Shown: piece after piece, positions 13,231 to 33,493 of the stretch
Numbering within the stretch: position 1 is the first letter of the stretch
How the letters are laid out: every line of letters starts with the position of its first letter
NCBI GenBank assembly: GCA_044350895.1
Contig: JBILGT010000002.1
Coordinates: 36,554-100,553, forward strand
Length of the DNA stretch: 64,000 nt
Source: Limisphaerales bacterium
Lineage (GTDB): Bacteria; Patescibacteriota; Microgenomatia; UBA1400; PJMF01
Reading direction: 5' to 3'
Position numbers and translations under genes: made by a program
Notes under the pieces: model-generated
The model's database searches: none
Seen by the model: the letters and a program-made list of their open reading frames with translations, nothing else
What the model was told of the DNA's origin: nothing

Positions 13231-13266
13231 GTATATTAGGTGTGTTTGTTACACATTTGACCCACT

Positions 13267-13821: not shown

Positions 13822-13844
13822 GTCACAAACTCTACATTCACTTC

Positions 13845-14459: not shown

Positions 14460-17400
14460 ATGATCAAACTCACGGGTATGAGGTTGTTTTTTTTGTGTGT
14501 GAGTTTTGTCGTGGGATTAATTAGCAGCGCCACATTAGTCTACGCGCAATCCAGCAATTTTGCTTCCTTCAAAGAAGATCTCGACTTTGTCCGTTCTCAA
14601 AGTGCTGCGGTACTTCTCTTTACACCACTTGGCTCCAACCCTGATCCTAACTTCAAAAAGCATGCGCTCAGCATGCAGCAAGTTCAAACACTCTGTGGTC
14701 AAACCGGAGACTGCGGAAACCTCGGTATTAACTTTGCCACAATGTTTAAGAAAGGTCAGTACGACAAGCTCAAGCAACTTAATATGCACTGGGCACTCGA
14801 AATCGCAGAGAAAGGTCGTGAAGCCAATGCTGCATCCGCCATTAATGAAAATCCCGATGCTCGAATTATTGTCCGTATTGGTGTAGCTGGTAATTCTGGA
14901 GGATTTGCTGACTACAACGGGAATGCAGCAGATTATATCGAGTTTCTTAAAAATCTTTCTGGTCAGGTGGGTGGCAAAGAATTTTACGCCATTGCAGGTC
15001 CAAATGAGCCAGATATCGAAAAGTGGATTGATCCCAATTGTGGAAGTGCACCGGGAGTTGAGTCAGCAGATTCACAGAAATTTTTTGATTGTGTGGGGCC
15101 AAAATTAACGCAGTATATGAACGCTGTGTGCGCCGCCAATCTCCCCAGTAATATCAAACTCCTCACTCCTGCTTTCAACATGACTTCATATAGCTTCCCC
15201 GGAATTGTCGCAGCCATGGAAAAATCAGGGGCAAACTGGAAGTGTTTCGCAGATCGCCAAACTGGTTTTGCAGGCAACCTCTACCCTGCCGGAAAAGCCA
15301 TGAAAGCATACTGGAATGATGACTACACAGGAAAAACAATTCAATTTTTACAGAGCAAAGGTTTGAAGGTATATATAACTGAGACAGGACCACACACTGC
15401 AATCAGCGCCCAAGATGTAAATGCTACAGCCCATGATTTTAGCGAGTTCTACATCCACCCAATCAAAGGAATTACTGGAGGTGATAAAAATATCATTCGT
15501 GATGATTTGGTTCGGCAAGGCTATGAAGCACGCTGTGCGGCCCCTGGATTTAATATTGAACTAGGTCAAGATGGCATTGAATGGATGGAAAAATATCTTA
15601 AATGTCGCGATGATGGCAAATGTAATGATGGAGATGTTGGCGATGGAGCTTCTTTTGGAGGAGAGACCATTCAACAATTTACAGCCACAATGAATGAGCA
15701 TACCTCCATTGGTCAAAGAGTGCTTTCAATTCTATCAATCGACTATCGAGACTCACTGATCCCTGTTTTTAGAGATGTTGACCAAGTCCCACAACTGAAA
15801 CGGTCACTTGAGGATTATTTTGGCTACAGAGAACCCGCCAACGACCAATATAACCTTGCTGAACTTAGATCTTCAGCTATAAATTCACTCCTCACAACCA
15901 ACCAACGATGCACCCAATCTGCTATCTCACTCTTACAAAGAGACGAAATGTGTAAAAAGCTACAAGATCCGACTAAATGTGCGCTGTACGAATCAAAAGT
16001 GCCTGAGACCCAACTTACCGTAAAACAACTTCTAGATGCATACAATGCTTATGCAGGAATTTCCACTGACCATGACGCCACGTGCTCAAAAATAACTGGA
16101 GGAGCTGATACAGAACTGCGTCGTGGAATGCTTAATCTGCCACTGCAAATTGATAACGCGTATCGCCTCGCATTTCTCGTTACCACAATCAGAACTAGAG
16201 TTCCGCTGGCTGGAGATATGATGAACTTGTTCCAACATCCACACCGTGGAGAACTCAATGAAGCCCCCGATCCTGCCCACGTCGTAATTGTGACAGCATT
16301 TAAAATACCTGATATCACAACAAATAAAGGCACAATTGACACACAAGGTGAACCAAAAAGCGGTCATACAGACTTCAATGACCCAGCTATGTTGACTCGC
16401 GATGTACTTATCCCAAGTACCATCAAACAAGAACTCGACAGGAGAGGTGATCTTGAACGTAAGAGATTACTCAATATGGGTCAAGTGATTGCAGACCAGG
16501 ATCAAGATGATAAAACAATGGAAATTGCCTGTCGCATCAAAGGTGTTGGTGGACAACAATGTCTCGATCCTTTAACTAGTGCGCTGGTGGATATTATCAA
16601 CGCACAATCACTCATTGAGACTGAGAATGAACAACTTATTGAAAAAGCTGTCGGGACAGATGTCTATACTGCTGTAGAAAAAGAACAGATGTTCAAACTC
16701 AACTGTGACGATGCTCCAACTGAAGAACCCACCTATATATTTGATCCAGGTGAGCTACAGCCACTCAACAATGCCGGCCGCGTATTCAAAACTGACTTTG
16801 GCGTAGCGATTTTGGAAAATCTTTTCACCGATGAATCACACATGAGACCAGGAACTTTTGAGTATGATCCTACCTATGCTGATACTGAGAGTAATAAAAA
16901 ATCAGCCCCCGGTGGTTTCCACTGGGGACTTAAGTCAGTTTTCCATGTCACTAGTGACAACACGTTTGGACCAACAGATACCAGCCGTTCTGTGAAACAT
17001 TTCATCGTCTACCCTGAAGGGTACGACCTTAAAACTGTTGAAGCGGTTATGTCGGGCACATTCTTTACGACACAACAAATTGTGGCATTGAGGGATAAGG
17101 CTCTTGATTATCAACGATTCATGATTAAAGACGACAAAATTTTATTTGATGGCGGCGAAATTTCCCACTCATTTACCGACTATACAGTGGAATACGATGA
17201 GGGCTATTGCGATACAACCTACTATAATTCTGCTGGAGAACTCAAACGTACACCTCCTTGTCCCACAGGTTCATTCGGCTTCAGACTTTTTGCCAGTAAA
17301 GATCCCACTTCAGCAGGAATTCTGGGAGGTAGACTTGGATTTTGGATGCACACCATTCAGCTCACCCTGCAACGAGCAGAAGCACTCACCCACAAATATC

Positions 17401-18686
17401 TTGAGAATTGTACTAGTACTGAAGATTTCTTGCTAGATCAATGCGGAGGCTCTTCAAGTAGCCAAGTAGGTAGTGATGAAGACAAAGATGATGACTTTGA
17501 TAAGCTCCAGCCATTCCCAATCACCTACTGGAATGGCAGCGAAGTCACATTCAGACCACCAAATCGAGAAATGTGGGATGCAATTATCAGTGCTTCAAGT
17601 CAGCATGGTTGCGATCCGTGGCTCGTACTCGCCACTGCTCATGCTGAAAGTGCCAACTTTGTAAATGAATCTTCACCAGGTAGTAATGGCGAGCAAGGAC
17701 TCTTTGGGTTTACCCCTGCTGAATGGGAGAAATGGAAAACTGAGAACAATTCACCTGCCAATGCAGATCACCACATGTCTCGTTGTGACTACTGGCAGCC
17801 TACATCCTTTTCTGCCCGCACACTTGATTTCAGCTCCCCCACCAACATCCGCTCTGCTGTAGATTCTGCGTGTCGCAGAATCCTTTGGACTGGGGCGCAA
17901 AGGCAAAGCAGCACGCAACAAAAGTTTTTGTACGATTTCAGTAGCTCAAACAAAGCTTACAAGAGTAACCCTTGGAATGGAGTAACTCCTGATGCTGAGA
18001 TCTGGACTAACAGTACTAATCAAGCAGACTATGTCTTCCGTTTATGGCAAGAGCTTTTGACAAAAACCGGCAATACTCCAAAATCACAACCTACTGGATA
18101 TCCATATGCTACTTGTATGGGAGAAGCACCAAAACCGACTGTCATAGACACCAACGCAGACGCAGCCGACTACAAAGGTCGCACTACTCTTCCAGCCACC
18201 GGACAAGCAACATACTATAGTGCTGGGGTGATGAACCAAGTGCTCAACTATCGTGAAGGTGGAGAGATTAATCCAAATCTCGTGGATACTTGTGAAATTG
18301 CATCCACCGGGGCACTCAAAGCACAGTTTGATCAAATGCAGGCTGAAGCAGATCGCAATGGCACTGGTAAATTTGTGGGTTGTGCAGCAATGCTGCGTTT
18401 GGGTGATGTACGATTCAGAGATAATAAGGATAAGAATGACGTTCGGGTCGTATGGATTCAGCGGCCACCAGGAGCTCCTTCAGATATTCCAGAAGTGATT
18501 GGGCCAATTGCAATTATTGACGTGGCGGCATCTCAGGACTATGCACGGTTGCGCGCAAAGGGTTGGATTATTGACTTAGACTTCCACACCTTCCGCAGAT
18601 TATTTGAGTGGCAAGGCAGTTGGAGACGTCCACAAGAAGGCATTAGAGTGTGTGACACAAGAGATCAGTGTTTACTTGGAAGTTAA
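14460..18686 (+). CDS. giant secreted multidomain hydrolase: clan GH-A glycosidase-like domain + lytic transglycosylase (SLT, VirB1-like) + C-terminal 3D/DPBB-like domain
   Basis: Signal peptide (MIKLTGMRLFFLCVSFVVGLISSATLVYAQ). 'AIAGPNEPD' (GH-A acid/base NEP) and 'VYITETGPH' (nucleophile TExG) in the N-terminal third. SLT catalytic region 'LVLATAHAESANF...GEQGLFGFTPAEW'. 'GQATYYSAGVMNQV...GEINP' near the C-terminus resembles 3D/RlpA-like DPBB. Confidence 0.65.
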   Translation: MIKLTGMRLFFLCVSFVVGLISSATLVYAQSSNFASFKEDLDFVRSQSAAVLLFTPLGSNPDPNFKKHALSMQQVQTLCGQTGDCGNLGINFATMFKKGQYDKLKQLNMHWALEIAEKGREANAASAINENPDARIIVRIGVAGNSGGFADYNGNAADYIEFLKNLSGQVGGKEFYAIAGPNEPDIEKWIDPNCGSAPGVESADSQKFFDCVGPKLTQYMNAVCAANLPSNIKLLTPAFNMTSYSFPGIVAAMEKSGANWKCFADRQTGFAGNLYPAGKAMKAYWNDDYTGKTIQFLQSKGLKVYITETGPHTAISAQDVNATAHDFSEFYIHPIKGITGGDKNIIRDDLVRQGYEARCAAPGFNIELGQDGIEWMEKYLKCRDDGKCNDGDVGDGASFGGETIQQFTATMNEHTSIGQRVLSILSIDYRDSLIPVFRDVDQVPQLKRSLEDYFGYREPANDQYNLAELRSSAINSLLTTNQRCTQSAISLLQRDEMCKKLQDPTKCALYESKVPETQLTVKQLLDAYNAYAGISTDHDATCSKITGGADTELRRGMLNLPLQIDNAYRLAFLVTTIRTRVPLAGDMMNLFQHPHRGELNEAPDPAHVVIVTAFKIPDITTNKGTIDTQGEPKSGHTDFNDPAMLTRDVLIPSTIKQELDRRGDLERKRLLNMGQVIADQDQDDKTMEIACRIKGVGGQQCLDPLTSALVDIINAQSLIETENEQLIEKAVGTDVYTAVEKEQMFKLNCDDAPTEEPTYIFDPGELQPLNNAGRVFKTDFGVAILENLFTDESHMRPGTFEYDPTYADTESNKKSAPGGFHWGLKSVFHVTSDNTFGPTDTSRSVKHFIVYPEGYDLKTVEAVMSGTFFTTQQIVALRDKALDYQRFMIKDDKILFDGGEISHSFTDYTVEYDEGYCDTTYYNSAGELKRTPPCPTGSFGFRLFASKDPTSAGILGGRLGFWMHTIQLTLQRAEALTHKYLENCTSTEDFLLDQCGGSSSSQVGSDEDKDDDFDKLQPFPITYWNGSEVTFRPPNREMWDAIISASSQHGCDPWLVLATAHAESANFVNESSPGSNGEQGLFGFTPAEWEKWKTENNSPANADHHMSRCDYWQPTSFSARTLDFSSPTNIRSAVDSACRRILWTGAQRQSSTQQKFLYDFSSSNKAYKSNPWNGVTPDAEIWTNSTNQADYVFRLWQELLTKTGNTPKSQPTGYPYATCMGEAPKPTVIDTNADAADYKGRTTLPATGQATYYSAGVMNQVLNYREGGEINPNLVDTCEIASTGALKAQFDQMQAEADRNGTGKFVGCAAMLRLGDVRFRDNKDKNDVRVVWIQRPPGAPSDIPEVIGPIAIIDVAASQDYARLRAKGWIIDLDFHTFRRLFEWQGSWRRPQEGIRVCDTRDQCLLGS

Positions 18687-18702: not shown

Positions 18703-19614
18703 TTAGATTCGCTTACTTGGTGAGAACTCTGGTGGTGGTGAAATACTATTCTTTTTGTTAGCTGGCTTCACAATTTTTGACTTATTGTTTTTTTCAGGTT
18801 CACGAAGCCCCCCTTCAACGGTGAAACCAATATCTGTTTCCACTGGAGTCGCCTTTTCCTGACTGTTTTTCTTAAAGTTTCGACGCGCACCAAATCGTAT
18901 AAGTTGCGCCACTACTTCAAAAGTTTCAGCAGAAGTTGTTACTGAACTTAAGTTCTGAGTACTGTTTTCAATCCCAGCTAATAAATTTGTAGCCACTTCA
19001 CTTTCAATGGATATTCCCAAATTCTGCAGTAGTTGGGCAATTACTTCACTACTGGAACTCACTGAGCCTGAATCGATTTTCACTGTCCCAAACGATGTCG
19101 TAAAGTTGTTAATAGAAACAAGTGAAGCAGTTTTGAATAAGTCCTCATATCCAAAGTAGAGTTGTTCCAAACTTTCGAGATCAGTTACACCCACTAAAAA
19201 AACTGCATCTGCGACTGCGCCAGTATATGTGAATTCAACTTGTGATGCATCAAGCGGTGGGAACCCTGCTTTTGGCTTGATGGTCAAATAAAATTTGCCC
19301 GTATCCTCACCAATGTGATAACTCACCTTATCCACTTGTTCTGGAGAATATGCAAAACTTATTCCCAGATTTTGATTTCCCATATCGATTTGCGTTTGCT
19401 CAATACCAATCAATGAGGCATCTGTTCTCTCCTCTATTTGCGGCGAAACGAGCCGCACCGACTTTTGTGCAGCAGAAAATGCTAAATACAAACTAGCCGC
19501 AACTGCACGATGATCAAATGATGTTTGTGAAGGGTGAATAACCAGAATTGTACTGGCAGAATCAAGTATGTTTTTAAGTTGTGACAACTGTGTTTCATCG
19601 AGCATAGAATTCAA
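18703..19614 (-). CDS. DHH-family phosphoesterase-like protein (degenerate motifs)
   Basis: 'ILVIHPSQTSFDHRA' where NrnA-type proteins have 'IxxHxxPDGDA'. 'TVEGG' near the C-terminus resembles the DHHA1 GGH region. Weak. Confidence 0.3.
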   Translation of the reverse strand: MNSMLDETQLSQLKNILDSASTILVIHPSQTSFDHRAVAASLYLAFSAAQKSVRLVSPQIEERTDASLIGIEQTQIDMGNQNLGISFAYSPEQVDKVSYHIGEDTGKFYLTIKPKAGFPPLDASQVEFTYTGAVADAVFLVGVTDLESLEQLYFGYEDLFKTASLVSINNFTTSFGTVKIDSGSVSSSSEVIAQLLQNLGISIESEVATNLLAGIENSTQNLSSVTTSAETFEVVAQLIRFGARRNFKKNSQEKATPVETDIGFTVEGGLREPEKNNKSKIVKPANKKNSISPPPEFSPSKRI

Positions 19615-19728
19615 TCCCTATAACTATGTATATTTGTTATCACACTATACCAATCGTTGTCTACATACAAAAAAAATTCCCAAGTTACTTTACCCTTTGC
19701 ATCATACTTTTGGTATACTACACACATC

Positions 19729-21426
19729 ATGTTGAAACGGATACTTCTGACCGTGTTTTCTTTGTTTGTGCTCAACACAAGTATTGTGAGTGCTCAAGGT
19801 ACAGCACCTACCCCAACTCCTGGTGCTGATGCAGACAACAATGGGTACGTTGATAACCCATACAGTTATAATATAACCACCGATGAGTATGCCTCATATA
19901 AAAAAGCCACTCAAAATTGTGAGACCCCTTCCCTAGAATGTTTGGTCAAGTACACTACTCGCTTTGCAGCTATGGAGTGGGCACTCGATATCGCCTATGG
20001 TCAAAAAATTGCTGACAACGGGCGCAGTGGCGGCGTCTTTGCAGGAGTAATGGGACTTGTAAATGAGATGTACAAGAATCCTGCGGCACACACAGCTACC
20101 TATGTGGCTGACGTGATGCACACAGCTGGTTTTGCTCCAAAAGCATATGCGCAAGGTCTGGGTTTTGCGTCCCTTGATCCAATTTTGAACTTATGGAAAG
20201 TGTTCAGAAATGTAGCGTACTTCTTCTTCATTATCATTTTCATTTTCTTAGGCTTTATGATTATGCTGCGCAAAAAGATCAGTGGACAGGCAGCAGTCAC
20301 TGCTCAGCAAGCAATTCCATCAGTCATTATTAGTTTGATTCTCGTCACTTTTTCCTATGCCATTGCTGGTTTCATGATTGATTTAATGTATGTACTGATG
20401 TTCCTTATTGTGGGCGTATTTGAAGGAATAACATCGAGTATCGAAGTGGCTGGACAACAAATGACTGGCGCGACCCTAGTTAACCTCAACTTTATTGGAT
20501 TGTTCGCATTTCTTTTTAAAGCAAATACTGATGCCCAGGCAATTGGAACTAACATAAACATTTCATCAAGTATTATTGAAGCAGCGGCAGATAGCTCTAA
20601 TGTGGCAACATACTTAGGTGGTGTTATCGGTGGATTGACACTCACCTTGATCATCACGGTTGCTGTTTTAATTGGTTCTGTCAGATTATTCTTTGAATTA
20701 CTCAAATCATATGCATCCATTATTATGTATGTTGTCACTAGTCCATTAGTATTAATGTTTGGAGCACTTCCTGGTAACGATGTATTTGGGAAATGGATCA
20801 AAGGAATTATTGGAAACCTTCTTGCCTTCCCCACAGTTTTATTAGTGTTGATAATTTTCATTGAATTTACCCATCAAGGTGGTAGCGCTGGCGGCGCAAC
20901 TGCAGGATTCATGCCACCATTTTTAATTGGAAATGGCAGTGCTGCAAACATGATTGGGCCACTACTGGGTCTTGCTATTATCTTAGGACTTCCAGACATT
21001 GTGAAAGAAGTTAAAAAAGCGGCAGGTGCTGGAGAAGGTGGAATTGGCAGCATGCTTGCTGGCTTTGCTACAAGTAATTTGAAGTCAGGAATTAGATACT
21101 CGCCGATTACAGGGCGCGCGGCTGGATATATTGGCGGTGCTGGAGAAGGAATAGCTAGAGCGGCGTATAACGGTGACTTCTTGACTAGACCAGGTGTTGC
21201 TTGGGACAAAATCAAAGGTTATGCTGGAGTACGAGGTGGGCAAGGTGCTGACTTCGGAAAGAGATTCGCGTCTGGTGCAGAACAGGTTTTTGAAAACAAA
21301 TGGATGGATCCTAATGCCTGGGAAAATGTCATTTTGTCTCAAGGTAGAGAGAAAAAAGCTGCAGAAATCAAGGCGCGTCTTGAAAAACTTGACAAACTCG
21401 GTCGTACCCCAGGCAGAAGATCTTAA
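19729..21426 (+). CDS. VirB6/TrbL-like polytopic membrane protein with Gly-rich C-terminal tail
   Basis: Probable start 19729 (MLKRILLTVFSLFVLNTSIVSAQ). About 130 aa extracellular, then about 8 TM helices and a G/A-rich cytoplasmic tail. The topology matches VirB6; there is no sequence-specific motif. Confidence 0.45.
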   Translation: MLKRILLTVFSLFVLNTSIVSAQGTAPTPTPGADADNNGYVDNPYSYNITTDEYASYKKATQNCETPSLECLVKYTTRFAAMEWALDIAYGQKIADNGRSGGVFAGVMGLVNEMYKNPAAHTATYVADVMHTAGFAPKAYAQGLGFASLDPILNLWKVFRNVAYFFFIIIFIFLGFMIMLRKKISGQAAVTAQQAIPSVIISLILVTFSYAIAGFMIDLMYVLMFLIVGVFEGITSSIEVAGQQMTGATLVNLNFIGLFAFLFKANTDAQAIGTNINISSSIIEAAADSSNVATYLGGVIGGLTLTLIITVAVLIGSVRLFFELLKSYASIIMYVVTSPLVLMFGALPGNDVFGKWIKGIIGNLLAFPTVLLVLIIFIEFTHQGGSAGGATAGFMPPFLIGNGSAANMIGPLLGLAIILGLPDIVKEVKKAAGAGEGGIGSMLAGFATSNLKSGIRYSPITGRAAGYIGGAGEGIARAAYNGDFLTRPGVAWDKIKGYAGVRGGQGADFGKRFASGAEQVFENKWMDPNAWENVILSQGREKKAAEIKARLEKLDKLGRTPGRRS

Positions 21427-21514: not shown

Positions 21515-24500
21515 CTAGTGTTTAACCTCAGCCTTACCAGAAGCATCTTTCTCTACTGCATGCTCGTGTTCGTATGGTGGTTTAAATTCCCCTTCAGAAT
21601 ATAGAGGGATAGCTCGTTTAATGCTGTGAGAAAGATCATCATCTTCTTCTGTTTCAATTTCCCATAACTTACGCATATAGAACATCTTATATCTATCACG
21701 AGGTCCTGCGATACAATAAGGTGGTGCGTTTCGCAAATCACCACCCATCAATCTTACAATTTCCTCGACTACATATCCAGGCAAACCACCAACTAGAACA
21801 TATTTGCTCATAAGTTCTCTATATAATGAATTTACTTTATGCCGTAAATGCCCGGATTCATAATTATGCAAAAGATCTGTAATATACGCACAAGTCAGTG
21901 GCGCAAATAACAATTGATGCTTTCCAGGAACCAATTTTGCCTTGCCCATATAATCCTTAATCCAAACTCTTAATAGTCCTTCAACTGCACCCTTATCCAT
22001 ATCAGGATCCATTGGTTTTTCAAATGCATCAAACAGTCCTTCTAGTTGGGTGCTGGCAATTTCGAATTGAACGGCAGAGAAATTGGGTGATTCATGTCCA
22101 CCAAAAAGAATATTTTGACCAAACATTGCATCCAACTGGGCAAGTCTATACTCTTTTTCATCCTTAAATTTTTTGTCCTTATACTTTTTATTAGCTTCCT
22201 TTAATTTTCTGTAATTAAAGTAGCCTTGGTGCTTAAATTCCTCTACGAAATCATTGACAGCTGTATTAAAGGCTGACTCTGTTATTCTTCCAGAAGTTAT
22301 ATCAGCAATTAACTGCCGTTTGCGCGCTTCTAGTTCCATTACTTGAGACGTCATTTCAGGCAATAATGGGAAGATTGGTTGATCAAGGTCAATGATAGCT
22401 CCTTCAAACAAACGTTTTTCTCTAGCTGGTGTCAAAGCATGAAGTGCCTCAGCATCATCTTTACCATGAAGATGCAGGTGCAGATCCAAATGATGTCTCG
22501 GCATAAATAACTTGCGAGCTTCGGTTATCCAAAGTGGTAATTTATCGTGCTTCATAAGTTCCTGCGCTGAGAACCTGGGGGCTGGTGGCAAATTACTAAA
22601 CCGTGTAAATAAATACAATTCAAAAAGGTCATGTACTTCTTCAGCACTACGAGCTTTATTAAGCCAGTTGTCATCAAAACTTTGAGCCACAAGTGCAATA
22701 AACTGATCTCGATCCACGAATTGGAAAATTCTCATGAACCTGGCTCTTGAGAGCCGATCATATCTAGTTGCATTGTATAAGTCCAAGGAGAATCTATTGG
22801 AGTAAGCGGATTCATCTTTACGAAGTGTTTCACCTGGAGAGAATCCATGACCACGAGTAGTACCACGACCTAAATATGGTTGATATCCAACAGATTTTGC
22901 ACCAAATGCTTTATAATAATTTAGGAGTGCAAGTCTTCTAAATATTGGTATGTCAGCAAAAACAAGTTTAATAATTGATGTAAAATCATCAGCAACGTGT
23001 TCATTAAGTACTCCATATGCAAATGGTTGATCCAACTTAGCTATTTTACTCAGCCGAGTTTGGAACTCATGGTCAGGCTCCCCTTGAATTCTTACTACCT
23101 GACTTCCACCCACGACACGATATGCTTGTTCTACTGGATTTTCATCCATAATTTCATCAATGCGCGATTGATAATCTGCTGTGGTTTCACCTTGGCGTTG
23201 TGGGACTAGCTTTACGACTGCAGCTCTATCGCCAGCTTGTATTGCATCTCTCGTTTTTCTCAATCTCTCCTGATAGTCAGGGTGAGTTTCCCTTTGGATC
23301 ATCCTAATATTGCCTGAATGATCAGCTAATCTGGCTCTTGTGGCATTTGTTGGATTTCCTGCGGCATCAATTATTTGGTCATGTATAGCTTCTACTAAAT
23401 GGCCTTTACCGACACCACCGAACTTTTCATTATCCTTAATTCGTGAAGTAATAAATCGCCACATAGCAATGGCGCGGACATCAACAGCAACACCATTTTC
23501 AAAATCCTTAATACCAACTGGTCGATTTGGATCTTTAAAATATAGCATTGCAAGTGTTTGCGGAGTACCGCCATTACCAGCAAACGGTTTAATCATATGA
23601 TTTAAGTTATGTGCCCAATCTTTACTACGGGATGTTCCATCAATGGCAGCGGCAGTAGTAGCAACACCATCCTTCAAAAGACTTTGTTGGTAATAATCTT
23701 CGACTTCACCTAAGCCAGCTTCATACCGATTTTTTAGCGCTTTAAAACGATCACTATCATATATAGCTGTTTGATCCATTAGCTCACTTACGACTTCTTG
23801 AATTGACATTGTCTGAGGATCCAGAGGTGTCAAAAGTTCTCTGGTGTGTTGTTGAATTAGTTGCTGTGCTCTTCTTTCAAACGCATCAATAACTCGATCT
23901 TCTTCTCCAACACCAGTTCTATTAAGGACGCCCGCTGTTTGTAATCTGTTGTATTCGGTGATGAGATTATCTCTTAGTTGTTTAAGCTCAGGCATCGACA
24001 TGCCCTCTTTCATCATTGCTTGTCTACTTTCTGGAATCTCAGCAACTAATCCTTCCCAGACTACTAGCTCCTTAGAGAAGTCAATTTTAAATTTCTCAAC
24101 ATTTCTAGTTTGAGTAAAACGATCAACCAGAGCCTGAATTTCACCTATTCTTTCAACCAAAGCGCGTCTACGATCAGTAATGACATCTCTTTGCTGTTGA
24201 TTGTTTCTGTTATATCCAAGTGCCGTAGTAGGTAAATTTGTGACAGCTTGATCAAAATTGGTCAGAACCGTAGTAGCATCTTGCAAAGCTTGCTGTGCTG
24301 CTATATCAGTTGTAATACCTGAAAGGTCTTGATTTACAACTGTTTCAGCAGCAACGGCCCATGGTTCAGTAGCAATTTGTTTCTGCCAAGTATTAAATGC
24401 GGTTTCTTGGAGGTTCTCTATTTGCTGAAGTATTCTCTGCTGTAAGGTTTCAGCTCGTCTGATGAGCCCCTGTGCGATGAGATAATCTCCCGTAGCAGGA

Positions 24501-26197
24501 TCAAATGTTCGTAAATCCATACGTTGGAGAATATTGACGTAGTATTCAAGCAGCTGTTGAACCGTATAGTTCTCTTCCTTTCCAGCAACATCAACGGGAC
24601 GAATTGTATTTCGGGGATCATATGAGGCATTAGCTAAGGCTGTTTCAACTGCGGTAATTTCTTGTTCAAAGTCAGTCACTAGCTTATTGGTTTTAGCATA
24701 ATATGCCGCTTCTGGGGATGTGGCTGGGTTCACAGTGGCTTGAGCAGGTCGTGCTTCAGGTATCAGGCGACGCATGCGATTAATTCTATTTTCAATATTC
24801 GTCATCCCTTGACTTATTATAGTTCGGTCGTCTGAAGATAATTTCAAGCCTAAAACATCCTCTGCTTCAAGCATTATATTTGATTCATACTCAGTGATAA
24901 TTGCATTGATCTCATTTATTTGATCTTGATTTATAGTAGCTGGAGTAAGTTGGGCTGCAAGGATGGCTTTAGCAGCTTGATTCAAATCTTGAAGCCTTTG
25001 TGAAACCTCTAAAAATCTTTGTCGTTCAGCTGGTTGGGTAACGTCTACAAATTGTGCGGCATTGATTTTATTTTCAAGATGAGATAAACGTTGGAGCATT
25101 GAAAGTAGATTGCGCATCACATTTATATCTTGTTCGTCACTTATTAGTCCTTCTAATCCTTGTCCCAGTACTTCAAGTACATAGAAAGCATTTCTATACT
25201 CTATCCCACCATTTACAGAACCAGCAAATATTAAGATTTCAGCATATGGGTTAAAATCAGGGCTATTTAAAGCTTGTTCTAATTCATCCATTATTAATCC
25301 ATAACGAGTCACTTCTGACGATCTACTTAGTCGACGAACTATTTCATAGATCTGATCCCGTAGATCTTCAAGCAAGTGAAGCATTTCATTAAGTTCACGT
25401 AATATATTGGGATCACTGGCTACAATGTTTAACTGGTCTTGTATCCCTTGTTCCAACTCAATAAGCACATTAAAAGTATTTTGGTACCCCATTGGACGAG
25501 TGTTGGCAGCATCTGCTGGAACCTGGATGACATCATATGGATTGTAACCTGGATTGGTTAAGGCTGTATCTAAAGCATCTATCACCAACTTGTACCGTTG
25601 CCGCTGTAAAGCTCGTTCGCGCTCTCCATCATCTCCTGGGTCACCATCGGGAGCTGCAGCTAATTCAGCAGCCCAATCAGCTGCAAAATTTTCTTCCGAT
25701 TCTCCTTCTTGCTGTTCAGTCAAGCTTGCTCTGCGAATACCAGCCAAGAGATCTCTATACCGTTTTACAAGATCAGGACGTGCTACAAAATTGGCGATAT
25801 GTAGTCGACACATGTTATTGAGGTCCTGCAAAAATACTTCTGCATTATGTGCATTAGTAATGTCACCCGCATTTAGTGCTTCTTCTCCAAGTTCTAGCGC
25901 GCGGTCGCAAATCCAAAAAATTGCATCCAAAATTTGTTTCTGTAAGTCGGCTTTAGTTTCTTCAAATACATTAAATTCGCCTAAAGTTTGCGGTTGATAC
26001 TCAGATATTTCTTGATATCTTCTCGTTAAATCAGTAACAATACCCATGGAAGCGCTAATATTTGCTACATCCATAGCTCCAACCACAGTCGAAACTCTGT
26101 TTAAATCACGATCAAGAGCTTTCTGAAGCTCTTCAAGTGACTGGCTGTATTGCTCAACCTCTTTTACCATACAGCGAATTATACTATTTTTCTTCAC
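21515..26197 (-). CDS. giant (1560 aa) cytoplasmic coiled-coil-rich protein, no recognisable catalytic motif
   Basis: Uninterrupted ORF, no signal peptide or TM, Q/E/L-rich heptad-like stretches, and a globular C-terminal ~500 aa without known motifs. Confidence 0.6.
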   Translation of the reverse strand: MKKNSIIRCMVKEVEQYSQSLEELQKALDRDLNRVSTVVGAMDVANISASMGIVTDLTRRYQEISEYQPQTLGEFNVFEETKADLQKQILDAIFWICDRALELGEEALNAGDITNAHNAEVFLQDLNNMCRLHIANFVARPDLVKRYRDLLAGIRRASLTEQQEGESEENFAADWAAELAAAPDGDPGDDGERERALQRQRYKLVIDALDTALTNPGYNPYDVIQVPADAANTRPMGYQNTFNVLIELEQGIQDQLNIVASDPNILRELNEMLHLLEDLRDQIYEIVRRLSRSSEVTRYGLIMDELEQALNSPDFNPYAEILIFAGSVNGGIEYRNAFYVLEVLGQGLEGLISDEQDINVMRNLLSMLQRLSHLENKINAAQFVDVTQPAERQRFLEVSQRLQDLNQAAKAILAAQLTPATINQDQINEINAIITEYESNIMLEAEDVLGLKLSSDDRTIISQGMTNIENRINRMRRLIPEARPAQATVNPATSPEAAYYAKTNKLVTDFEQEITAVETALANASYDPRNTIRPVDVAGKEENYTVQQLLEYYVNILQRMDLRTFDPATGDYLIAQGLIRRAETLQQRILQQIENLQETAFNTWQKQIATEPWAVAAETVVNQDLSGITTDIAAQQALQDATTVLTNFDQAVTNLPTTALGYNRNNQQQRDVITDRRRALVERIGEIQALVDRFTQTRNVEKFKIDFSKELVVWEGLVAEIPESRQAMMKEGMSMPELKQLRDNLITEYNRLQTAGVLNRTGVGEEDRVIDAFERRAQQLIQQHTRELLTPLDPQTMSIQEVVSELMDQTAIYDSDRFKALKNRYEAGLGEVEDYYQQSLLKDGVATTAAAIDGTSRSKDWAHNLNHMIKPFAGNGGTPQTLAMLYFKDPNRPVGIKDFENGVAVDVRAIAMWRFITSRIKDNEKFGGVGKGHLVEAIHDQIIDAAGNPTNATRARLADHSGNIRMIQRETHPDYQERLRKTRDAIQAGDRAAVVKLVPQRQGETTADYQSRIDEIMDENPVEQAYRVVGGSQVVRIQGEPDHEFQTRLSKIAKLDQPFAYGVLNEHVADDFTSIIKLVFADIPIFRRLALLNYYKAFGAKSVGYQPYLGRGTTRGHGFSPGETLRKDESAYSNRFSLDLYNATRYDRLSRARFMRIFQFVDRDQFIALVAQSFDDNWLNKARSAEEVHDLFELYLFTRFSNLPPAPRFSAQELMKHDKLPLWITEARKLFMPRHHLDLHLHLHGKDDAEALHALTPAREKRLFEGAIIDLDQPIFPLLPEMTSQVMELEARKRQLIADITSGRITESAFNTAVNDFVEEFKHQGYFNYRKLKEANKKYKDKKFKDEKEYRLAQLDAMFGQNILFGGHESPNFSAVQFEIASTQLEGLFDAFEKPMDPDMDKGAVEGLLRVWIKDYMGKAKLVPGKHQLLFAPLTCAYITDLLHNYESGHLRHKVNSLYRELMSKYVLVGGLPGYVVEEIVRLMGGDLRNAPPYCIAGPRDRYKMFYMRKLWEIETEEDDDLSHSIKRAIPLYSEGEFKPPYEHEHAVEKDASGKAEVKH

Positions 26198-26231: not shown

Positions 26232-26627
26232 ATGACTTCGCAACTCCACTCGCTATGGTTCTCAAGCACTGTTTTGCATGGTGATAAATCTGGCCGCCAG
26301 ATAGGTTTTCCCACAATAAACCTTGATCCCAAGGCTATGCCGCTAGGTTCTGAAGAAGGTGTGTATGCATCTGAAGTCAGAGTAGCTGACAAAATATATG
26401 TTGGAGCACTTTATTTTGGTCCTCGCAGCGTCAAAAATGAGGTTTTTAATGTGCTTGAAATCCACATCCTCAATTTTTCACAAGAAATTTACGGACAGAC
26501 AGTTTCATTTAAGGTTGGTACATTTATTCGTCCAGTGATACACTTCACAAAACTTTCAGAACTTAAAACACAACTTGCTGAAGATATTGCAGCAATACAA
26601 AAGGATGAAACGCTACATGCAAAATAA
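26232..26627 (+). CDS. riboflavin kinase (monofunctional flavokinase domain)
   Basis: 'LHGDKSGRQIGFPTINL...EGVYASEVRV...GALYFGPRSV...LEIHILNFSQEIYGQTVSFK...IRPV.HFTKLSELKTQLAEDI' matches the bacterial/eukaryotic flavokinase pattern (GRxLGFPTAN...GVY...). Confidence 0.7.
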   Translation: MTSQLHSLWFSSTVLHGDKSGRQIGFPTINLDPKAMPLGSEEGVYASEVRVADKIYVGALYFGPRSVKNEVFNVLEIHILNFSQEIYGQTVSFKVGTFIRPVIHFTKLSELKTQLAEDIAAIQKDETLHAK

Positions 26628-27534
26628 ATTTTCAAAAACACAATTGGTCGGACCGGCACTTATTGCTGTTGCGGCAATCCTTTGGGCATTGGATGGTGTA
26701 CTACGCAGAAGTCTTTTTGCGCTGCCACCAATCGTAATTGTGTTTTATGAGCACCTAATTGGGAGCATCATTTTACTGCCACTTTTGTGGAAACAGCTCA
26801 CCACTGAAGCAATCACCCGCAAAAGTCTCATGCTCGCATCAGGAATTGCCTTGTTGAGTGGACTACTTGGCACGCTCTGGTTCACCACAGCTCTGGTTAA
26901 AGTCAATTTTATTTCGTTTAGTGTCGTCTTTTTACTACAAAAACTACAACCTATTTTTGCAACTTCAGCAGCTGTCGTGCTCCTCAAAGAGAAAGTTTCC
27001 CGAACGTACGTCATGTGGGCGGGACTCGCGATGCTTGCTGCGTTTTTTGTAACGTTTAAAAATGGCTATGTCAGCTTGGCCACTGGAGAAGGCACAATTG
27101 TTGCTGCGCTCTACGCTATAGGTGCTGCGGCCGCCTGGGGATCGTCAACTGCCCTCTCAAAACTGCTCCTTAAAGAACATTCAACTGGTATGGCAACAGG
27201 ACTTCGATTCTTTCTCACCACAATATTTGGATTTATCGCTGTACTACTCTTTACTCAGCCTAATCAAATTATGTTGGTAGATGGCTCTCAAATCCTCCGC
27301 TTTGCAGTAATCGCGCTTTCTACGGGTATGGTAGCACTGTACATCTACTACAAGGGTTTACAGCGCACCCAAGCTAAAATTGCCACCATTATTGAATTAA
27401 TTTTTCCTATGTTGGCTGTTTCGATTGACGCAGTGGTGTACAAATCATTTTTGGCTCCCACTCAAATTATTGCTGCGCTCGTGTTGCTCTTTGCAATCTA
27501 TAAAGCTTCACAACTCAACGCCCAAAAGCAGTAG
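26617..27534 (+). CDS. EamA/DMT-family transporter (10 TM)
   Basis: Two tandem 5-TM halves. Start chosen at 26617 (AAGGA 10 nt upstream) to minimise overlap with the riboflavin kinase gene; the track start is 26575. Confidence 0.65.
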   Translation: MQNKFSKTQLVGPALIAVAAILWALDGVLRRSLFALPPIVIVFYEHLIGSIILLPLLWKQLTTEAITRKSLMLASGIALLSGLLGTLWFTTALVKVNFISFSVVFLLQKLQPIFATSAAVVLLKEKVSRTYVMWAGLAMLAAFFVTFKNGYVSLATGEGTIVAALYAIGAAAAWGSSTALSKLLLKEHSTGMATGLRFFLTTIFGFIAVLLFTQPNQIMLVDGSQILRFAVIALSTGMVALYIYYKGLQRTQAKIATIIELIFPMLAVSIDAVVYKSFLAPTQIIAALVLLFAIYKASQLNAQKQ

Positions 27535-27605: not shown

Positions 27606-30600
27606 ATGGCATCCGATACTCAACCTCGGCAGATTGTTTTTGTGGCTGGAACTACTACTTCAGTAGATGAGTATCCTGTTGATGTAGACCACATAAAACA
27701 AATTGGTTTTTACTCCTCTGATGATTTTATTCAGTTTAAAGATCTCTTTTTAGAGCTCATCAATTCTCTCCATCTTAATGATCAAGGTATTTACGAACTA
27801 TATCCCGGTCAAGAAATCAAACAGATTCGCATTACATATCAAAAGGATGGCGGAAATTTTCAAAAAGTTTCACTTCGCACTACCGATGGATTACCTGGTG
27901 ACCCAGGAATACCAGAAAAACGGGAACGACTTTTCTTCTGTGACTTTGTCTATATTTCACTCGGCATCGCCAAAATCCTTCGAAAGAACTATCCCAAATC
28001 TACTGAAACACTGAAAGACTATACCGACAGCTTCGATATTGAGAAACAAATTAAAGAATGGGGAGCTGCTGGAGAGAAGCAGTATCTTTCCCAACGAGCA
28101 CTGCAGTGGGAAACTCCAGCAATCAAAGAGTTGCTTACTGAAATTTTTACGGCGTTTCAAGATATCACTGTAGAACTTAAAAAAGAGCCTGTCCAAGAAC
28201 CACCAGCTGAGGAATCAGGTGAACGACGCGCTACAGAAGCTGATGCTCTACTTGTCTTACCAGAAGTTTTGACTGCAGGAGTCACTCCAACTGTAGATGG
28301 TGGTGGCGATACAGCTGATACTACTAGCACACCTACTAGCACAAGAACTGAATCAATTGAAGATGAATCAAGCTACGTAACAGCGCGACAATTTGTTTTG
28401 GGGTTTGCGAGAACAACATTGATTGACGATGTCTTGAGGCGCAGTGGTCTAGATCCTGATTCTTTACCGCCTGAACTTCGAGGGCGATATGATGAGCTCT
28501 TCAGAATTCTTGAAACAGAACTAACTATTGTGCTGAGAAATCTTTCTGATGAAGAACGAGAACGACTTGCTTCTGGCGATGTGAGTCAAAAAATTTCCGT
28601 CTACTATTTACTACTCCGCCAATTATCAGGTAGTCCATCAGCACGTTTTTATGAGTTGTTTGTAGAATTTTATGAAACAGAAGTCACACATCTAGTTGAG
28701 AACCAACAAACAGAAGCGGCCCAACAACTTGTGACCGCAGTAACTGCCCAGTTTAGCGAAGTAGCACAAGAAATTCCTGAGCTTCAAAGAATTCATGATA
28801 ATTTACTAGCCTGGGAGCGTGAAATTTTGAGTGCAGCTCCAGTTGCAGCAACAACTGCTGAGACTGATGATGAAATCGAAACACCAGCTACTATTGTAGA
28901 AGCAACTGATGAAGTTGAAATACAGATCTCTCGCCTCCCCGATCCGCCAGTTATCATTCCAACGTTCCAAGCGCAAGTCAGTGCGCTTCCTCAAGTCCAA
29001 CAACTTACACAAAACGAGCAGGCCAGCATCCCCAATCGTTCTGGCCACGTTATTTGGGGAGCAATGGCTGAACTATTTTCAGAGGAAGATCTTCGTCGAA
29101 ATAATATTCCACCAGAGCTTTTTAACGCTGTTTCTCAGACTGCTTATGAATACCTCAATGGACTTTCTGCGCAGGAACTTAAAAAACTTGCAAAATCACC
29201 AAGTAGTTTAATTCGTCATATAAAAAATGTTTCTGTCAGACTACAAACTGATGCTGTTTTTAGTGAAACATACGGACAATACAAGTTATCCTATGCTACA
29301 CCAGCAATTAATCGTACCGAGCGAATTGAAGTTGAGACACAGTGGGCTTCTGAGAATTTGAAATACGAACTTTTCAGTGCCCACGACATTACGACATCAT
29401 TACTCAACCAATCTGCAAAATTAACCAGTGAGTATCGTGATGTTGAACAGAATCTTGAAGCAAAAGTTTATGGTATTTTCCTTACATTTAGTACTGATTA
29501 TCTCCAACTTTTATACTTCAATCCCAACGAGCGACGTACCTTAATCATTCGAATACAAAACACACTCAATGCTGATCCTCAGTTTTTAAGAGAATTAAGT
29601 GAGTTTTACAACGAACTAATTGTCTATTTTGCTGAACAACAAAGACTTGAGGAACGTGAAGACCTTGTTGAGAGTTTAAAAAGTACTAATCACTCATTTT
29701 TACAAGAAGAAGGCACTTTTCGCTATATTGTCAGTGATGTTCAACTATCAGATTCACACAAATTATTTATTGAGCAGTTAAAAAAGAGCTTAAACACTGA
29801 CTCCCCGCCAATCTTGCAAAACACTGCAAATGTGCTCGACGCCCTGATCATTGCACATGGAATCGAAGAAACTAACCGTCTTATTCAAGGGGTAAGTCCA
29901 CAACTACTAGAAATGACGTTTGGATTACCCACAGGGATCATTACTGATGACAACCATCGGTCGATTAGAGAAATTTTGGGTAACTACATAACTGTTCGTG
30001 TTTTCAACCTTGCACCAGGTGAAATTGCCGATCACAGAGCCCTATTAGTACCAGGTCAGACTACTATTCCTACAAATGCCACTAGTTTGCAGAAACACTT
30101 GGGACCAGTACATAATCTTGCAAAAATAATTACTGAAGATGGTTCTGAAAAAACGACTCTTGCACTACAAGGCGGAGTTAAGAAAAGAATTGATGCATTA
30201 GAAAAGGTTTTGGGACAAAAGTGGAGAAACTTAGGACTTGAGGAACGTGCAGCAGTTTACTTGTACTTTGATAAACCGTTTGATGCTTCACTTAAGCAAC
30301 GTCTAAAAAGTAAGTCAGCAGATTTGGAAGCTGACAAGCATATTTTAGGCGTCTTCATAGAATTTGCAGGTTTTAACGATCGATTATTGCCAGAGCTTGT
30401 CACTGATGCTCGGCTTAATGGATTTCAAAGATTAACTGGTGGAATCCCTGTTGAGACTAAATCGGGTGATGATATTACTGAGTTTTACAAAATCACCCGT
30501 CAAGCTGAAATACTTGAGCTTGAAGTTTCACTACTCGTACTAGACGAACTTTCAGCATTAGAGCGGGAACAACTTGCAGCACAGTACCAGATGTCTGCTG

Positions 30601-32447
30601 CGCAGCTTGAAGCTGCTTACCTCACCGCAATCACTACCAATCAAGGAATGCACTCACTTCCCGGGCCAGATGAGATCACACAAGTTGGAGGTGATCAACA
30701 ACCCGCCCAGCCTGGACAAAACTTGCCTGAGAGTACTACCAGAAGCCCACTCAGAGAGCGACTGAAAAATGGACTCAGAAAAAAAGCCACAGGAGAAATA
30801 ACTAAGAGACTTGGTGCAGCAACTGCCGAAAAAGCCCTTTTTGGTCTTGGAGGCAAACTGGCTGGTTTGGCATCTGGGGTTGGTGCTGCAATTGCTGCAG
30901 CTGCATTGATTAAGGACGTTCTCACTGAACTTTGGAATAACGAGGGCTTACGAAATCTACTCGCTGGGGCATTAACTGTCGGTTCAGCAATTTTGCTTAA
31001 TATTCTTGGAAATGTGGCGGGACTTTTAACTTTTGCTGCAATAAGTTTTGTGGGAGGATTTTCTATCCCCGCTCTCTTAGCTGGATTAGCTGCTGGTCAA
31101 GCAGCAGCCATGGCAGCACCTTGGGCACGCTGGTTTTCACAACCACGCACACCACCAAACCCATTTGGTTTCTCAACTGGTAGTGAGCAGTCAGCATCAG
31201 GAACTCCATCATTAGCTCAAATGCGTGGAAAAGCTCCTGGGGCGACTCCCCAATCGTCCATTTCACCTACTCCAGAATCAACCACAGCGACTGCAAATAG
31301 TGGAGTAACACCAGATGGTTCAAATGCTTCTGTTTCTGCTACAACCCAATATAGTACAACTTCAACAACAGCCGCTACTGCTTCTGGATTGTCTCAACTT
31401 GCTGCTATACCTATTGCTATTCTGGCTCCAACAATGGGAATTTTCACCGTTTTCATATCAACAATATTGGTTGTCACTGTTATTGCAGGAGCATTTTTAG
31501 TACCAGTTCCTACAAAACCAAATTCTCGCAAGGTAATTGATGGACTTGGACAACAGTCCAGTTCCAAATACGTCACTATCACAAAAACTCCTTCAATTGG
31601 AGCTACAAAAGGAGAAATTCAAAATAGAACAGATGTTCCTGTTACGTACACAATTACTGTTGAACCAAAGCCAGGATATTCAATAAAAGTTACTGGCGTA
31701 AAAGATGAATTTTCTGGAATTGGTGGGCAAACAACAGACCTGCAATCAAAACTTGATTTTTCAAAATTCCCCAGTGAACCAATCAAGGACTCTTCATTTT
31801 CAACAAGCTATACGGTCAATACAGGCACCAATTTGATTGATGCACTTATAATGAATGCTGTTACAGCAACCTTTGATGTATACGATTACACTGGGTACGT
31901 AATTGAAACGGGTGAAACATATACCGCAACAGCAACTATTTATATTGGTAATCCAAAAGTAGGCTGTTGGCCAACTAGTGGTGGTGTATGGCAACTGCCT
32001 GGTGGTAGCTTCAGTCATAGCAGATTGGATGCATACGACATTGGAAATGAAATTGGAACTCCTGTGTATGCGCCATTCCCTGGAGAAGTATGTGATAAAG
32101 GATATGACACTGCAGCAAGCGGTGGATATGGGCTCCACGCCAGTTTGAAGTTCAACCTAGGTGGCGGAGATCTCGTCCTATTTTTTGGTCACTTTGTTAA
32201 AAGTCCAAAAGATTTAATTGAAGGACTTGATGCCCGCGGATGTAAGACTGTTAATGCTGGAACACTCATAGGACTGATGGATGACACAGGTTTTTCCACA
32301 GCATCTCACTTACATTACGAACTGAGACCAAATACAATTGGGGTGAAGCTCAAAGATTTGCATCCAGATGGTCAACAGGTTATTAATTCATTCAACAGTG
32401 GAAAAAGGCCAGTGATCGTCCGAGACTGTTTTGGAGGAACAAAATAA
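27606..32447 (+). CDS. giant (1613 aa) membrane protein: large cytoplasmic N-terminal region, Gly/Ala-zipper TM segments, extracellular C-terminal M23 (LytM) peptidase domain
   Basis: C-terminus 'HSRLDAYDIGNEIGTPVYAPFPGEV...GGYGLHASLKF...GTLIGLMDDTGFSTASHLHYELRP' is the M23 signature (HxxxD...HxH). TM cluster 'GLASGVGAAIAAAAL...ALTVGSAILLNILGNVAGLLTFAAISFVGGFSIPALLAGLAAGQAAAMAA' and 'IAILAPTMGIFTVFISTILVVTVIAGAFLV'. Confidence 0.65.
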   Translation: MASDTQPRQIVFVAGTTTSVDEYPVDVDHIKQIGFYSSDDFIQFKDLFLELINSLHLNDQGIYELYPGQEIKQIRITYQKDGGNFQKVSLRTTDGLPGDPGIPEKRERLFFCDFVYISLGIAKILRKNYPKSTETLKDYTDSFDIEKQIKEWGAAGEKQYLSQRALQWETPAIKELLTEIFTAFQDITVELKKEPVQEPPAEESGERRATEADALLVLPEVLTAGVTPTVDGGGDTADTTSTPTSTRTESIEDESSYVTARQFVLGFARTTLIDDVLRRSGLDPDSLPPELRGRYDELFRILETELTIVLRNLSDEERERLASGDVSQKISVYYLLLRQLSGSPSARFYELFVEFYETEVTHLVENQQTEAAQQLVTAVTAQFSEVAQEIPELQRIHDNLLAWEREILSAAPVAATTAETDDEIETPATIVEATDEVEIQISRLPDPPVIIPTFQAQVSALPQVQQLTQNEQASIPNRSGHVIWGAMAELFSEEDLRRNNIPPELFNAVSQTAYEYLNGLSAQELKKLAKSPSSLIRHIKNVSVRLQTDAVFSETYGQYKLSYATPAINRTERIEVETQWASENLKYELFSAHDITTSLLNQSAKLTSEYRDVEQNLEAKVYGIFLTFSTDYLQLLYFNPNERRTLIIRIQNTLNADPQFLRELSEFYNELIVYFAEQQRLEEREDLVESLKSTNHSFLQEEGTFRYIVSDVQLSDSHKLFIEQLKKSLNTDSPPILQNTANVLDALIIAHGIEETNRLIQGVSPQLLEMTFGLPTGIITDDNHRSIREILGNYITVRVFNLAPGEIADHRALLVPGQTTIPTNATSLQKHLGPVHNLAKIITEDGSEKTTLALQGGVKKRIDALEKVLGQKWRNLGLEERAAVYLYFDKPFDASLKQRLKSKSADLEADKHILGVFIEFAGFNDRLLPELVTDARLNGFQRLTGGIPVETKSGDDITEFYKITRQAEILELEVSLLVLDELSALEREQLAAQYQMSAAQLEAAYLTAITTNQGMHSLPGPDEITQVGGDQQPAQPGQNLPESTTRSPLRERLKNGLRKKATGEITKRLGAATAEKALFGLGGKLAGLASGVGAAIAAAALIKDVLTELWNNEGLRNLLAGALTVGSAILLNILGNVAGLLTFAAISFVGGFSIPALLAGLAAGQAAAMAAPWARWFSQPRTPPNPFGFSTGSEQSASGTPSLAQMRGKAPGATPQSSISPTPESTTATANSGVTPDGSNASVSATTQYSTTSTTAATASGLSQLAAIPIAILAPTMGIFTVFISTILVVTVIAGAFLVPVPTKPNSRKVIDGLGQQSSSKYVTITKTPSIGATKGEIQNRTDVPVTYTITVEPKPGYSIKVTGVKDEFSGIGGQTTDLQSKLDFSKFPSEPIKDSSFSTSYTVNTGTNLIDALIMNAVTATFDVYDYTGYVIETGETYTATATIYIGNPKVGCWPTSGGVWQLPGGSFSHSRLDAYDIGNEIGTPVYAPFPGEVCDKGYDTAASGGYGLHASLKFNLGGGDLVLFFGHFVKSPKDLIEGLDARGCKTVNAGTLIGLMDDTGFSTASHLHYELRPNTIGVKLKDLHPDGQQVINSFNSGKRPVIVRDCFGGTK

Positions 32448-33451: not shown

Positions 33452-33493
33452 ATCATGATAAGATACTAAAGAAAAGAATCGTGAACTTCATGT

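Follow-up and report, generated by a model that had tools for sequence, protein, structure and literature searches.

What is a protein of 1560 amino acids (aa), to which no known domain can be assigned, doing at a fixed position among the genes of a type IV secretion system (T4SS)? This question is raised by a 64-kb stretch of DNA (contig JBILGT010000002.1, positions 36,554 to 100,553, assembly GCA_044350895.1; hereafter the window), which contains a Patescibacteria T4SS region adjoining dnaA and dnaN and, among its genes, an open reading frame (ORF) of 4.7 kb that encodes the protein in question. In the passages devoted to it in the literature, the T4SS of the candidate phyla radiation (CPR) is described as essential, relaxase-less and without an identified substrate (PMC10633639, PMC12102498, PMC12857230). 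We propose, with a rough probability of 0.4, that the 1560-aa protein is a dedicated client of the Patescibacteria T4SS, most probably one of its translocated substrates or effectors.

As a first reading of the DNA (hereafter the original prediction) had stated, the ORF is intact; it runs uninterrupted over 1560 codons on the minus strand, from a GTG start at position 26197. The start itself is uncertain and may instead be the in-frame ATG at 26170 (Met10), because that ATG is preceded, at a distance of 7 nt, by a TATAAT box; the same arrangement suggests a near-leaderless transcript beginning at Met10. The distance from the GTG to the divergent riboflavin kinase gene is just 34 nt. The original prediction had further claimed that the protein lacks a signal peptide, a transmembrane (TM) segment and any recognizable catalytic or NTP-binding motif, and these claims also stand. 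In a Kyte-Doolittle scan (19-residue window, cutoff 1.6; an in-house and crude procedure that is not equivalent to SignalP), the maximum reaches 1.46, the N-terminus is not hydrophobic, and neither the protein nor any one of its 28 examined relatives shows a stretch that resembles a TM segment or a signal peptide. The protein also lacks Walker A, Walker B-like, HExxH and CxxC motifs. Searches of the protein against Pfam yielded only a sub-threshold match to DUF6827 (16.1 bits; cutoff, 26.9), those against PADLOC only LmuB (E 0.0011, without a qualifying stretch, and judged trivial), those against NCBIfam and PHROGs zero matches, and those against PDB sequences zero matches up to E = 1. There is no paralogue within the window. 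An identical protein is present in a JGI metagenome, where it is ended by the contig edge (P0001/L019).

The protein defines a new, rare and unannotated family. When 1.84 billion representative proteins were searched exhaustively with HMMER, a profile of four sequences recovered only 27 related clusters at E <= 1e-3, with members of 650-1544 aa when complete. The family profile retrieved nothing from PDB sequences up to E = 10, no Pfam family is common to 18 members, and no relative was detected by tblastn on 72,556 plasmids or among viral contigs. A scan of contigs with the 4-sequence profile likewise found nothing, whereas a scan with a broader 18-sequence alignment (A3) did recover related loci. 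The genomes that carry the family include metagenome-assembled genomes labelled Candidatus Pacebacteria and 'uncultured Patescibacteria'.

Related loci were collected by exact-protein look-up and pattern scans, and the proteins of the window were mapped onto each of them. The gene order VirB4-TrsD-PrgI-g334-M23 giant-(cargo)-1560-aa protein (opposite strand)-VirB6-like-g303-g1408-pilin array is conserved, and wherever the flanking sequence suffices (L001-L003, L008-L013, L015-L017; L004-L007, L014 and L018 are partial) a homologue of the 1560-aa protein occupies the place between the M23 giant and g589. The homologue always converges on g589 and is encoded on the other strand from both machine operons, and the gene is therefore a separate transcription unit. 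The cargo between the M23 giant and the 1560-aa protein differs between genomes (riboflavin kinase and EamA in the window, a MetK-like gene in L011, genes of 552-650 aa in L009 and L010, nothing in L012); hence the 1560-aa protein is fixed in position and the housekeeping genes are inserts. The original description of the surroundings as a T4SS-like locus is thereby confirmed, with a positional orthologue in all related loci with enough flank, distant Patescibacteria included. The protein co-localizes systematically with VirB4, VirB6-like and pilin genes in divergent genomes and is a positional constant of one widespread Patescibacteria T4SS locus layout. Furthermore, the presence of a VirD4-type coupling protein (T4CP) gene in the window, 36 kb from the ORF and about 24 kb from virB4, indicates that a T4CP is available close to this genome's T4SS, even if the cluster itself encodes none. 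In L009, L011 and L013 a gene of 174-295 aa stands directly upstream on the strand of the family member. No immunity-like partner gene is conserved beside the family. The 88-nt convergent spacer between the ORF and g589 contains no terminator-like structure (z = 0.07), no promoter or terminator enrichment was found, and no Rfam family, tRNA and rRNA included, attains its gathering score in the 64-kb window.

With respect to architecture, residues 775-1547 align family-wide in four blocks and constitute the conserved core. Its AlphaFold2 (AF2) model, built on the alignment A3, is confident (mean predicted local distance difference test score, pLDDT, 85.6; predicted template modelling score, pTM, 0.83) and comprises 39 helices and almost no strands; an earlier model on the 4-sequence alignment (pLDDT 49.5) was unusable and was kept out of the fold search. 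No fold relative was found in PDB or BFVD, and within the scope of these two databases the modelled core appears to be an orphan fold. The C-terminal globular region foreseen in the original prediction thus exists, but its conserved part extends over about 775 aa rather than about 500 and is all-alpha. Among 18 diverse members, with mutual identity of just 21-47%, 24 columns are invariant. The TTRGHGF motif lies within a 20-residue loop and is followed by invariant D1128, Y1141, R1145, Y1146 and R1228; Y1061 and six residues of a second, inter-helix loop (Table 1) are likewise invariant.

The N-terminal half contains three repeats (R1-R3, about 93 aa each) with the common motif ..L..AL.NP.[FY][ND]P.., delineated by motif-anchored alignment together with a hidden Markov model (HMM) whose scores are circular because it was built from those very copies. 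The similarity of R1 and R2 is visible directly in the alignment, and a blastp self-comparison of the protein did not report internal repeats. R3 is the sole repeat that was modelled, amid a poor surrounding AF2 model. Close homologues have one repeat copy each, versus three in the 1560-aa protein. The label of coiled-coil protein in the original prediction overstates what is there and is not well supported, because only about 105 of the 1560 residues fall into canonical heptad windows free of Pro and Gly (three stretches, 1-39, 264-298 and 352-382, in a crude in-house scan that uses no dedicated predictor). The enrichment in Gln, Glu and Leu is only moderate, and the many helices of the low-confidence AF2 model, the longest of 55 aa, are broken by loops and beta-hairpins.

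The C-terminal tail carries the second conserved element. Every member with an intact C-terminus (n=27) ends in the motif IP[FL]..G ... [AS]P[WY]x[WYH]x2-4[VA]x[KE]DT[ST], followed by 0-12 residues; in the 1560-aa protein it reads PPYEHEHAVEKDASGKAEVKH. A strict regular expression matches 20 of the 27 tails, the other 7 being one-residue variants, and has zero other matches in 24,984 residues of family proteins. The final 13 residues have pLDDT < 50 in the core model. Because the net charge of the last 25 residues ranges from -8 to +4 among members, the tail is neither Arg-rich, as in the VirB/D4 type, nor an obvious Glu block. We infer that this motif could dock a conserved partner, most plausibly an ATPase of the FtsK/VirB4 superfamily (the T4CP or VirB4/TrsD).

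Several established identities were considered for the protein and rejected. It is not an ATPase of the SMC/Rad50/MukB type: Walker A and Walker B-like motifs are missing, no SMC family of Pfam or NCBIfam matches, only about 105 aa are heptad-like, and the only SMC-related signal is the PADLOC match to LmuB mentioned above. Homology to SMC proteins or chaperones, which the original prediction had raised as the housekeeping alternative, was not found. A VirD4/TraG-type coupling protein is contradicted by the lack of a P-loop, a TM segment and a Pfam match, and the genuine T4CP is encoded separately. A conjugative relaxase (MOB) is rejected since neither profiles nor fold comparison revealed an HUH, Rep_trans, PD-(D/E)XK or tyrosine-recombinase-like domain. 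In polymorphic toxins the conserved end is N-terminal, the reverse of the layout of this family.

The protein is among the fastest-changing genes of the locus, and the change is mostly N-terminal. In partial alignments with distant loci its identity is 21-30%, or 0.04-0.06 bits per residue, compared with 81-82% for VirB4, 50-65% for TrsD, 37-50% for g303 and 36-45% for g589, and where VirB4 stands at 81% its own value is 22-25%; only g1408 and the M23 giant, both envelope-exposed, are as divergent, and the ranking is unchanged among closer relatives. Between the closely related P0004 and P0003, amino acid identity is 64% for the 1560-aa protein and 84-90% for four neighboring genes, with nonsynonymous divergence (dN) of 0.26 and 0.04-0.10, respectively. 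The corresponding ratio to synonymous divergence (dN/dS) comes to 0.17 for the whole gene, with 0.35 for the N-terminal region and 0.11 for the core, values that are rough because dS is 1.2-1.7, near saturation. A dN/dS of about 0.17 implies purifying selection, and therefore a functional and constrained gene.

Given these observations, we hypothesize the following course of events for a T4SS client. Synthesis would take place in the cytoplasm, with no Sec signal, and the conserved, disordered C-terminal peptide ([AS]P[WY]x[WYH]..KDT[ST]-COOH) would attach the protein to one of the T4SS ATPases, either the T4CP (62204-63898) or VirB4/TrsD. The T4SS and the pilus apparatus would then export it toward the host cell, where the all-alpha core of about 775 aa would act, perhaps via the invariant loops TTRxHG...D...Y..RY and GKAKLxPGxH, and the fast-changing N-terminal helical repeats would adapt to lineage-specific targets. 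We favor this reading because the rate profile matches that of host-facing proteins and not of cytoplasmic machine parts, because the gene is transcribed separately and its product lacks a Sec signal, and because a variable N-terminus joined to a conserved C-terminal end is the layout of T4SS clients. It is further favored because a T4CP is encoded in the window, because the gene is under purifying selection and its C-terminal motif recurs in all 27 members with an intact C-terminus, and because the synteny is fixed in all related loci with enough flank, in a system whose substrate the literature leaves undefined. Moreover, all 28 members are soluble and free of a Sec/Tat signal, as is expected of T4SS substrates, by the Kyte-Doolittle scan only. 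Of the three roles offered in the original prediction, that of an effector or substrate accordingly has the most indirect support, from rate, tail, separate transcription and T4CP, whereas a coiled-coil stalk or a cytoskeletal protein has little in its favor, because heptad stretches are scarce, a partner domain with a P-loop is missing and the core is all-alpha and globular.

Several considerations weigh against the client hypothesis. Export itself is a step that we infer; the conserved part, at about 775 aa, is far larger than a secretion signal needs; and one would expect a cytoplasmic adaptor to carry a docking peptide just as much. The composition of the tail resembles neither the Arg-rich signals of VirB/D4 systems nor the Glu-block signals of the Dot/Icm type, and weak constraint on a helical scaffold could also give fast evolution. 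Furthermore, the T4SS cluster of strain ML1 is ordered differently and, as far as gene order, size and annotation in the published account reach, has no obvious counterpart of the 1560-aa protein, which is therefore not universal to CPR T4SSs; the same organism's T4CP is reported, in the passages concerned, to be non-essential.

The main rival holds that the protein remains in the epibiont and serves the T4SS from the cytoplasm, as an accessory or platform (substrate receptor, adaptor, assembly scaffold or gate), with its C-terminal peptide on the VirB4/TrsD or T4CP ATPase ring, in a role analogous to that of the DotL adaptor complex or of the all-alpha domain of VirD4. We regard this as possible, if somewhat doubtful. 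The strict synteny with machine genes, the solubility and lack of a TM segment, the large conserved all-alpha core with its invariant polar loops, the purifying selection and the short linear motif at the C-terminus, which is typical of docking peptides, are all in agreement with such a part, and core and docking peptide are explained by it as well as by an effector. The rate data and the hypervariable length are explained less well: the protein changes in dN 3-6 times faster than the machine parts that it would need to contact, and its N-terminal half is hypervariable in sequence and length (650-1560 aa in the family). It is, in addition, transcribed separately in the opposite direction, and the ML1 cluster, from which it is apparently absent to judge by the published annotation, works without a homologue.

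It is improbable, in our view, that the protein has nothing to do with secretion and is a cytoplasmic protein of the cytoskeleton, nucleoid or cell division machinery whose adjacency to the T4SS stems from a syntenic origin-proximal region. The junction does hold housekeeping cargo (riboflavin kinase, EamA, the MetK-like gene in L011), the locus borders dnaA and dnaN, and no functional domain links the protein to secretion. However, this cargo differs between genomes while the 1560-aa protein is always convergent with g589, and the family occurs only where a genome has a T4SS of this layout, with 27 clusters among 1.84 billion proteins and none on plasmids or viral contigs. Moreover, an identity of 22% beside a VirB4 at 81% would be unusual for a housekeeping protein.

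A more far-reaching version of translocation, to which we assign a very small chance, is that the family forms a class of its own, of pilot or processing enzymes that are translocated, with an all-alpha fold that has no relatives, an active site assembled from the TTRxHG...D...Y..RY and GKAKLxPGxH loops and a new C-terminal T4SS signal (PWxW..KDTS), carrying or acting on host nucleic acid or envelope substrates. If true, it would explain what the essential, relaxase-less Patescibacteria T4SS moves. Slimmer still is the prospect of a non-canonical nucleic-acid-processing pilot protein that substitutes for a relaxase, is moved via the T4SS and draws its active site from invariant Tyr, Arg, His and Lys. 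The lack of a known relaxase in CPR T4SS loci, the presence of the T4CP, the large size, solubility and signal-like C-terminal tail shared with relaxases, and the invariant Y1061, Y1141, Y1146, R1115, H1117, R1145, R1228, K1421 and H1427 would suit this role, but no catalytic signature or fold speaks for it, and invariant tyrosines are no evidence of nicking. Finally, a decaying pseudogene, a case raised in the original prediction, or a spurious long ORF, for which only the lack of annotation speaks, is refuted by a 4.7-kb ORF free of frameshifts, homologues that align end to end, a dN/dS of about 0.17 and a confident AF2 model of the core.

Table 1. Coordinates, within the window, of the 1560-aa protein, its parts and the neighboring T4SS genes.
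Feature	Position	Strand	Remarks
ORF of the 1560-aa protein (1560 aa + stop)	21515..26197	-	soluble; without TM segment or signal peptide
Possible alternative start, ATG = Met10	26170-26168	-	TATAAT -10-like box 26183-26178, read from sequence
N-terminal variable helical region, aa 1-774	23876..26197	-	alignable only among close relatives
Repeat R1, aa 199-291, motif 'NPGYNPY'	25325..25603	-	motif-anchored alignment
Repeat R2, aa 296-388, motif 'SPDFNPY'	25034..25312	-	motif-anchored alignment
Repeat R3, aa 506-597	24407..24682	-	AF2: helix, beta-hairpin, helices, pLDDT 65-87
Conserved family core, aa 775-1547	21557..23875	-	all-alpha; AF2 pLDDT 85.6, pTM 0.83
Loop 'TTRGHGF', aa 1113-1119	22841..22861	-	T1114, R1115, H1117, G1118 invariant in 18 members
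Inter-helix loop 'GKAKLVPGKH', aa 1418-1427	21917..21946	-	G1418, K1421, L1422, P1424, G1425, H1427 invariant
C-terminal tail, aa 1530-1560, 'IPLY..PPYEHEHAVEKDAS..KH'	21518..21610	-	disordered in AF2 model
Nine VirB2-like T4SS_pilin paralogues, tandem array	9970..14372	+	
g1408, signal peptide + very large ectodomain	14460..18686	+	fast-evolving, syntenic
g303, soluble, degenerate DHH/DHHA1-like, conserved	18703..19614	-	DHH and DxD motifs missing
g589, signal peptide + about 8 TM segments	19657..21426	+	expected VirB6-like channel position; convergent with the 1560-aa protein in every locus
Riboflavin kinase + EamA transporter, lineage-variable cargo	26232..27534	+	at divergent junction
M23 giant, 1613 aa: N-terminal ~1080 aa without signal peptide, TM cluster, C-terminal M23 peptidase domain	27606..32447	+	
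g334 (bitopic), PrgI/VirB3-like, TrsD-like, VirB4 ATPase, then dnaA, dnaN	32447..38048	+	
VirD4-type coupling protein (T4CP), 564 aa	62204..63898	-	TrwB_AAD_bind E 7e-12, TraG-D_C E 2e-7

The neighboring genes offer observations of their own. The protein g303 resembles DHH/DHHA1 phosphoesterases weakly but consistently (RecJ-like 8ioo, E 3e-4; NrnA; TM1595; Mn-PPase), has a basic C-terminal tail, is among the best-conserved products of the locus (37-60% identity between loci) and, like the 1560-aa protein, is always encoded on the opposite strand. The M23 giant, with its TM cluster at aa 1084-1299 and its M23 domain at aa 1476-1577, evolves at a speed equal to that of the 1560-aa protein; since some 1080 N-terminal residues without a signal peptide precede the TM cluster, it may be a membrane-spanning protein, a large domain of which lies in the cytoplasm. 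In L009 and L015, both of them distant loci, the best matches of the pilin paralogues are one-to-one (pil9, pil8, pil7/6, pil5, pil4 and pil3 are examples), and the array is therefore old and conserved in order, not a recent amplification. About 4.5 kb upstream of the nine-gene array, two proteins of 431 and 445 aa (2912-4207 and 4197-5534, plus strand) contain a C-terminal T4SS_pilin domain and may represent pilins that are greatly extended at the N-terminus.

These findings bear on a system whose importance has been established in the sole species tested so far, Southlakia epibionticum ML1, where the T4SS is essential for epibiotic growth (PMC10633639). In the parts of the report that concern the T4SS, the ML1 cluster SEML1_0006-0019 is given as essential, as resembling Gram-positive conjugative systems and as containing pilins and no recognizable coupling protein or relaxase within the cluster (Wang et al., 2023; PMC10633639). 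A survey of 2,474 virB4 genes, in the sections concerned, catalogued homologues of VirB1/2/3/4/6/8, TrsD and T4CP, and left neighbors without Pfam, NCBIfam or TIGRFAM homology in grey in its synteny figure (Quinonero-Coronel et al., 2025; PMC12102498). A 2025 FEMS review, in its passage on the subject, still calls the transported molecule speculative and lists cargo and direction of transport as undefined (PMC12857230). The passages on the Patescibacteria T4SS in these three sources make no mention of the family described here. Because it is soluble, fast-evolving and fixed in position, with a predicted orphan fold and a family-wide C-terminal motif, the 1560-aa protein is a concrete candidate for the cargo, or for the cytoplasmic receptor of the cargo, for one large sub-lineage of such T4SSs at the least. 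Furthermore, it adds a new family whose fold, modelled with confidence over about 775 aa, is without relatives in PDB, and its tail motif could serve to find further clients of the same machine.

As for known systems, the locus is in keeping with the T4SS set described for Patescibacteria in the relevant sections of the literature, namely VirB4, TrsD, PrgI, a VirB6-like protein, an M23 hydrolase and a VirB2-like pilin array, all origin-proximal (PMC10633639, PMC12102498). It differs from the ML1 cluster SEML1_0004-0019, which, judged from published sizes and annotations only, has another gene order and no evident counterpart of the 1560-aa protein. The protein shares with T4SS adaptors (DotL-DotM-DotN-IcmSW and the all-alpha domain of VirD4) a cytoplasmic, helical and T4SS-associated nature and the lack of enzymatic motifs; in contrast, the known adaptors are small, and no similarity of sequence or fold to them was detected.

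The family also recalls three groups of exported proteins. The X-Tfe proteins of Xanthomonas and Stenotrophomonas are interbacterial T4SS clients whose C-terminal XVIPCD is recognized by the VirD4 T4CP, and they share with the 1560-aa protein the combination of a variable N-terminal part with a conserved C-terminal element, in their case the one that is recognized. XVIPCD, however, is a domain of about 120 aa, joined to recognizable toxin parts at the N-terminus and accompanied by immunity genes, whereas the present family has an orphan core of about 775 aa and a short tail, with no conserved immunity-like partner gene. Type VII substrates (Esx, LXG) bind the FtsK-like EccC/EssC ATPase through a C-terminal peptide; they too are all-alpha, without a signal peptide and equipped with a short conserved C-terminal motif, which docks an ATPase of the FtsK/VirB4 superfamily in monoderm bacteria. 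They differ in size (about 100-600 aa against 650-1560 aa) and in machinery, and the 1560-aa protein has no WXG or YxxxD/E motif. CagA is a dedicated T4SS effector encoded inside the cag pathogenicity island of Helicobacter pylori. Because similarity of sequence or fold was searched for across PDB, CagA included, and not found, the relationship is one of analogy and not of membership. Nevertheless, CagA is the closest analogue in logic, a locus-encoded and fast-evolving T4SS effector that, like the 1560-aa protein, exceeds 1000 aa, is soluble, lacks a Sec signal and has a largely alpha-helical fold without relatives.

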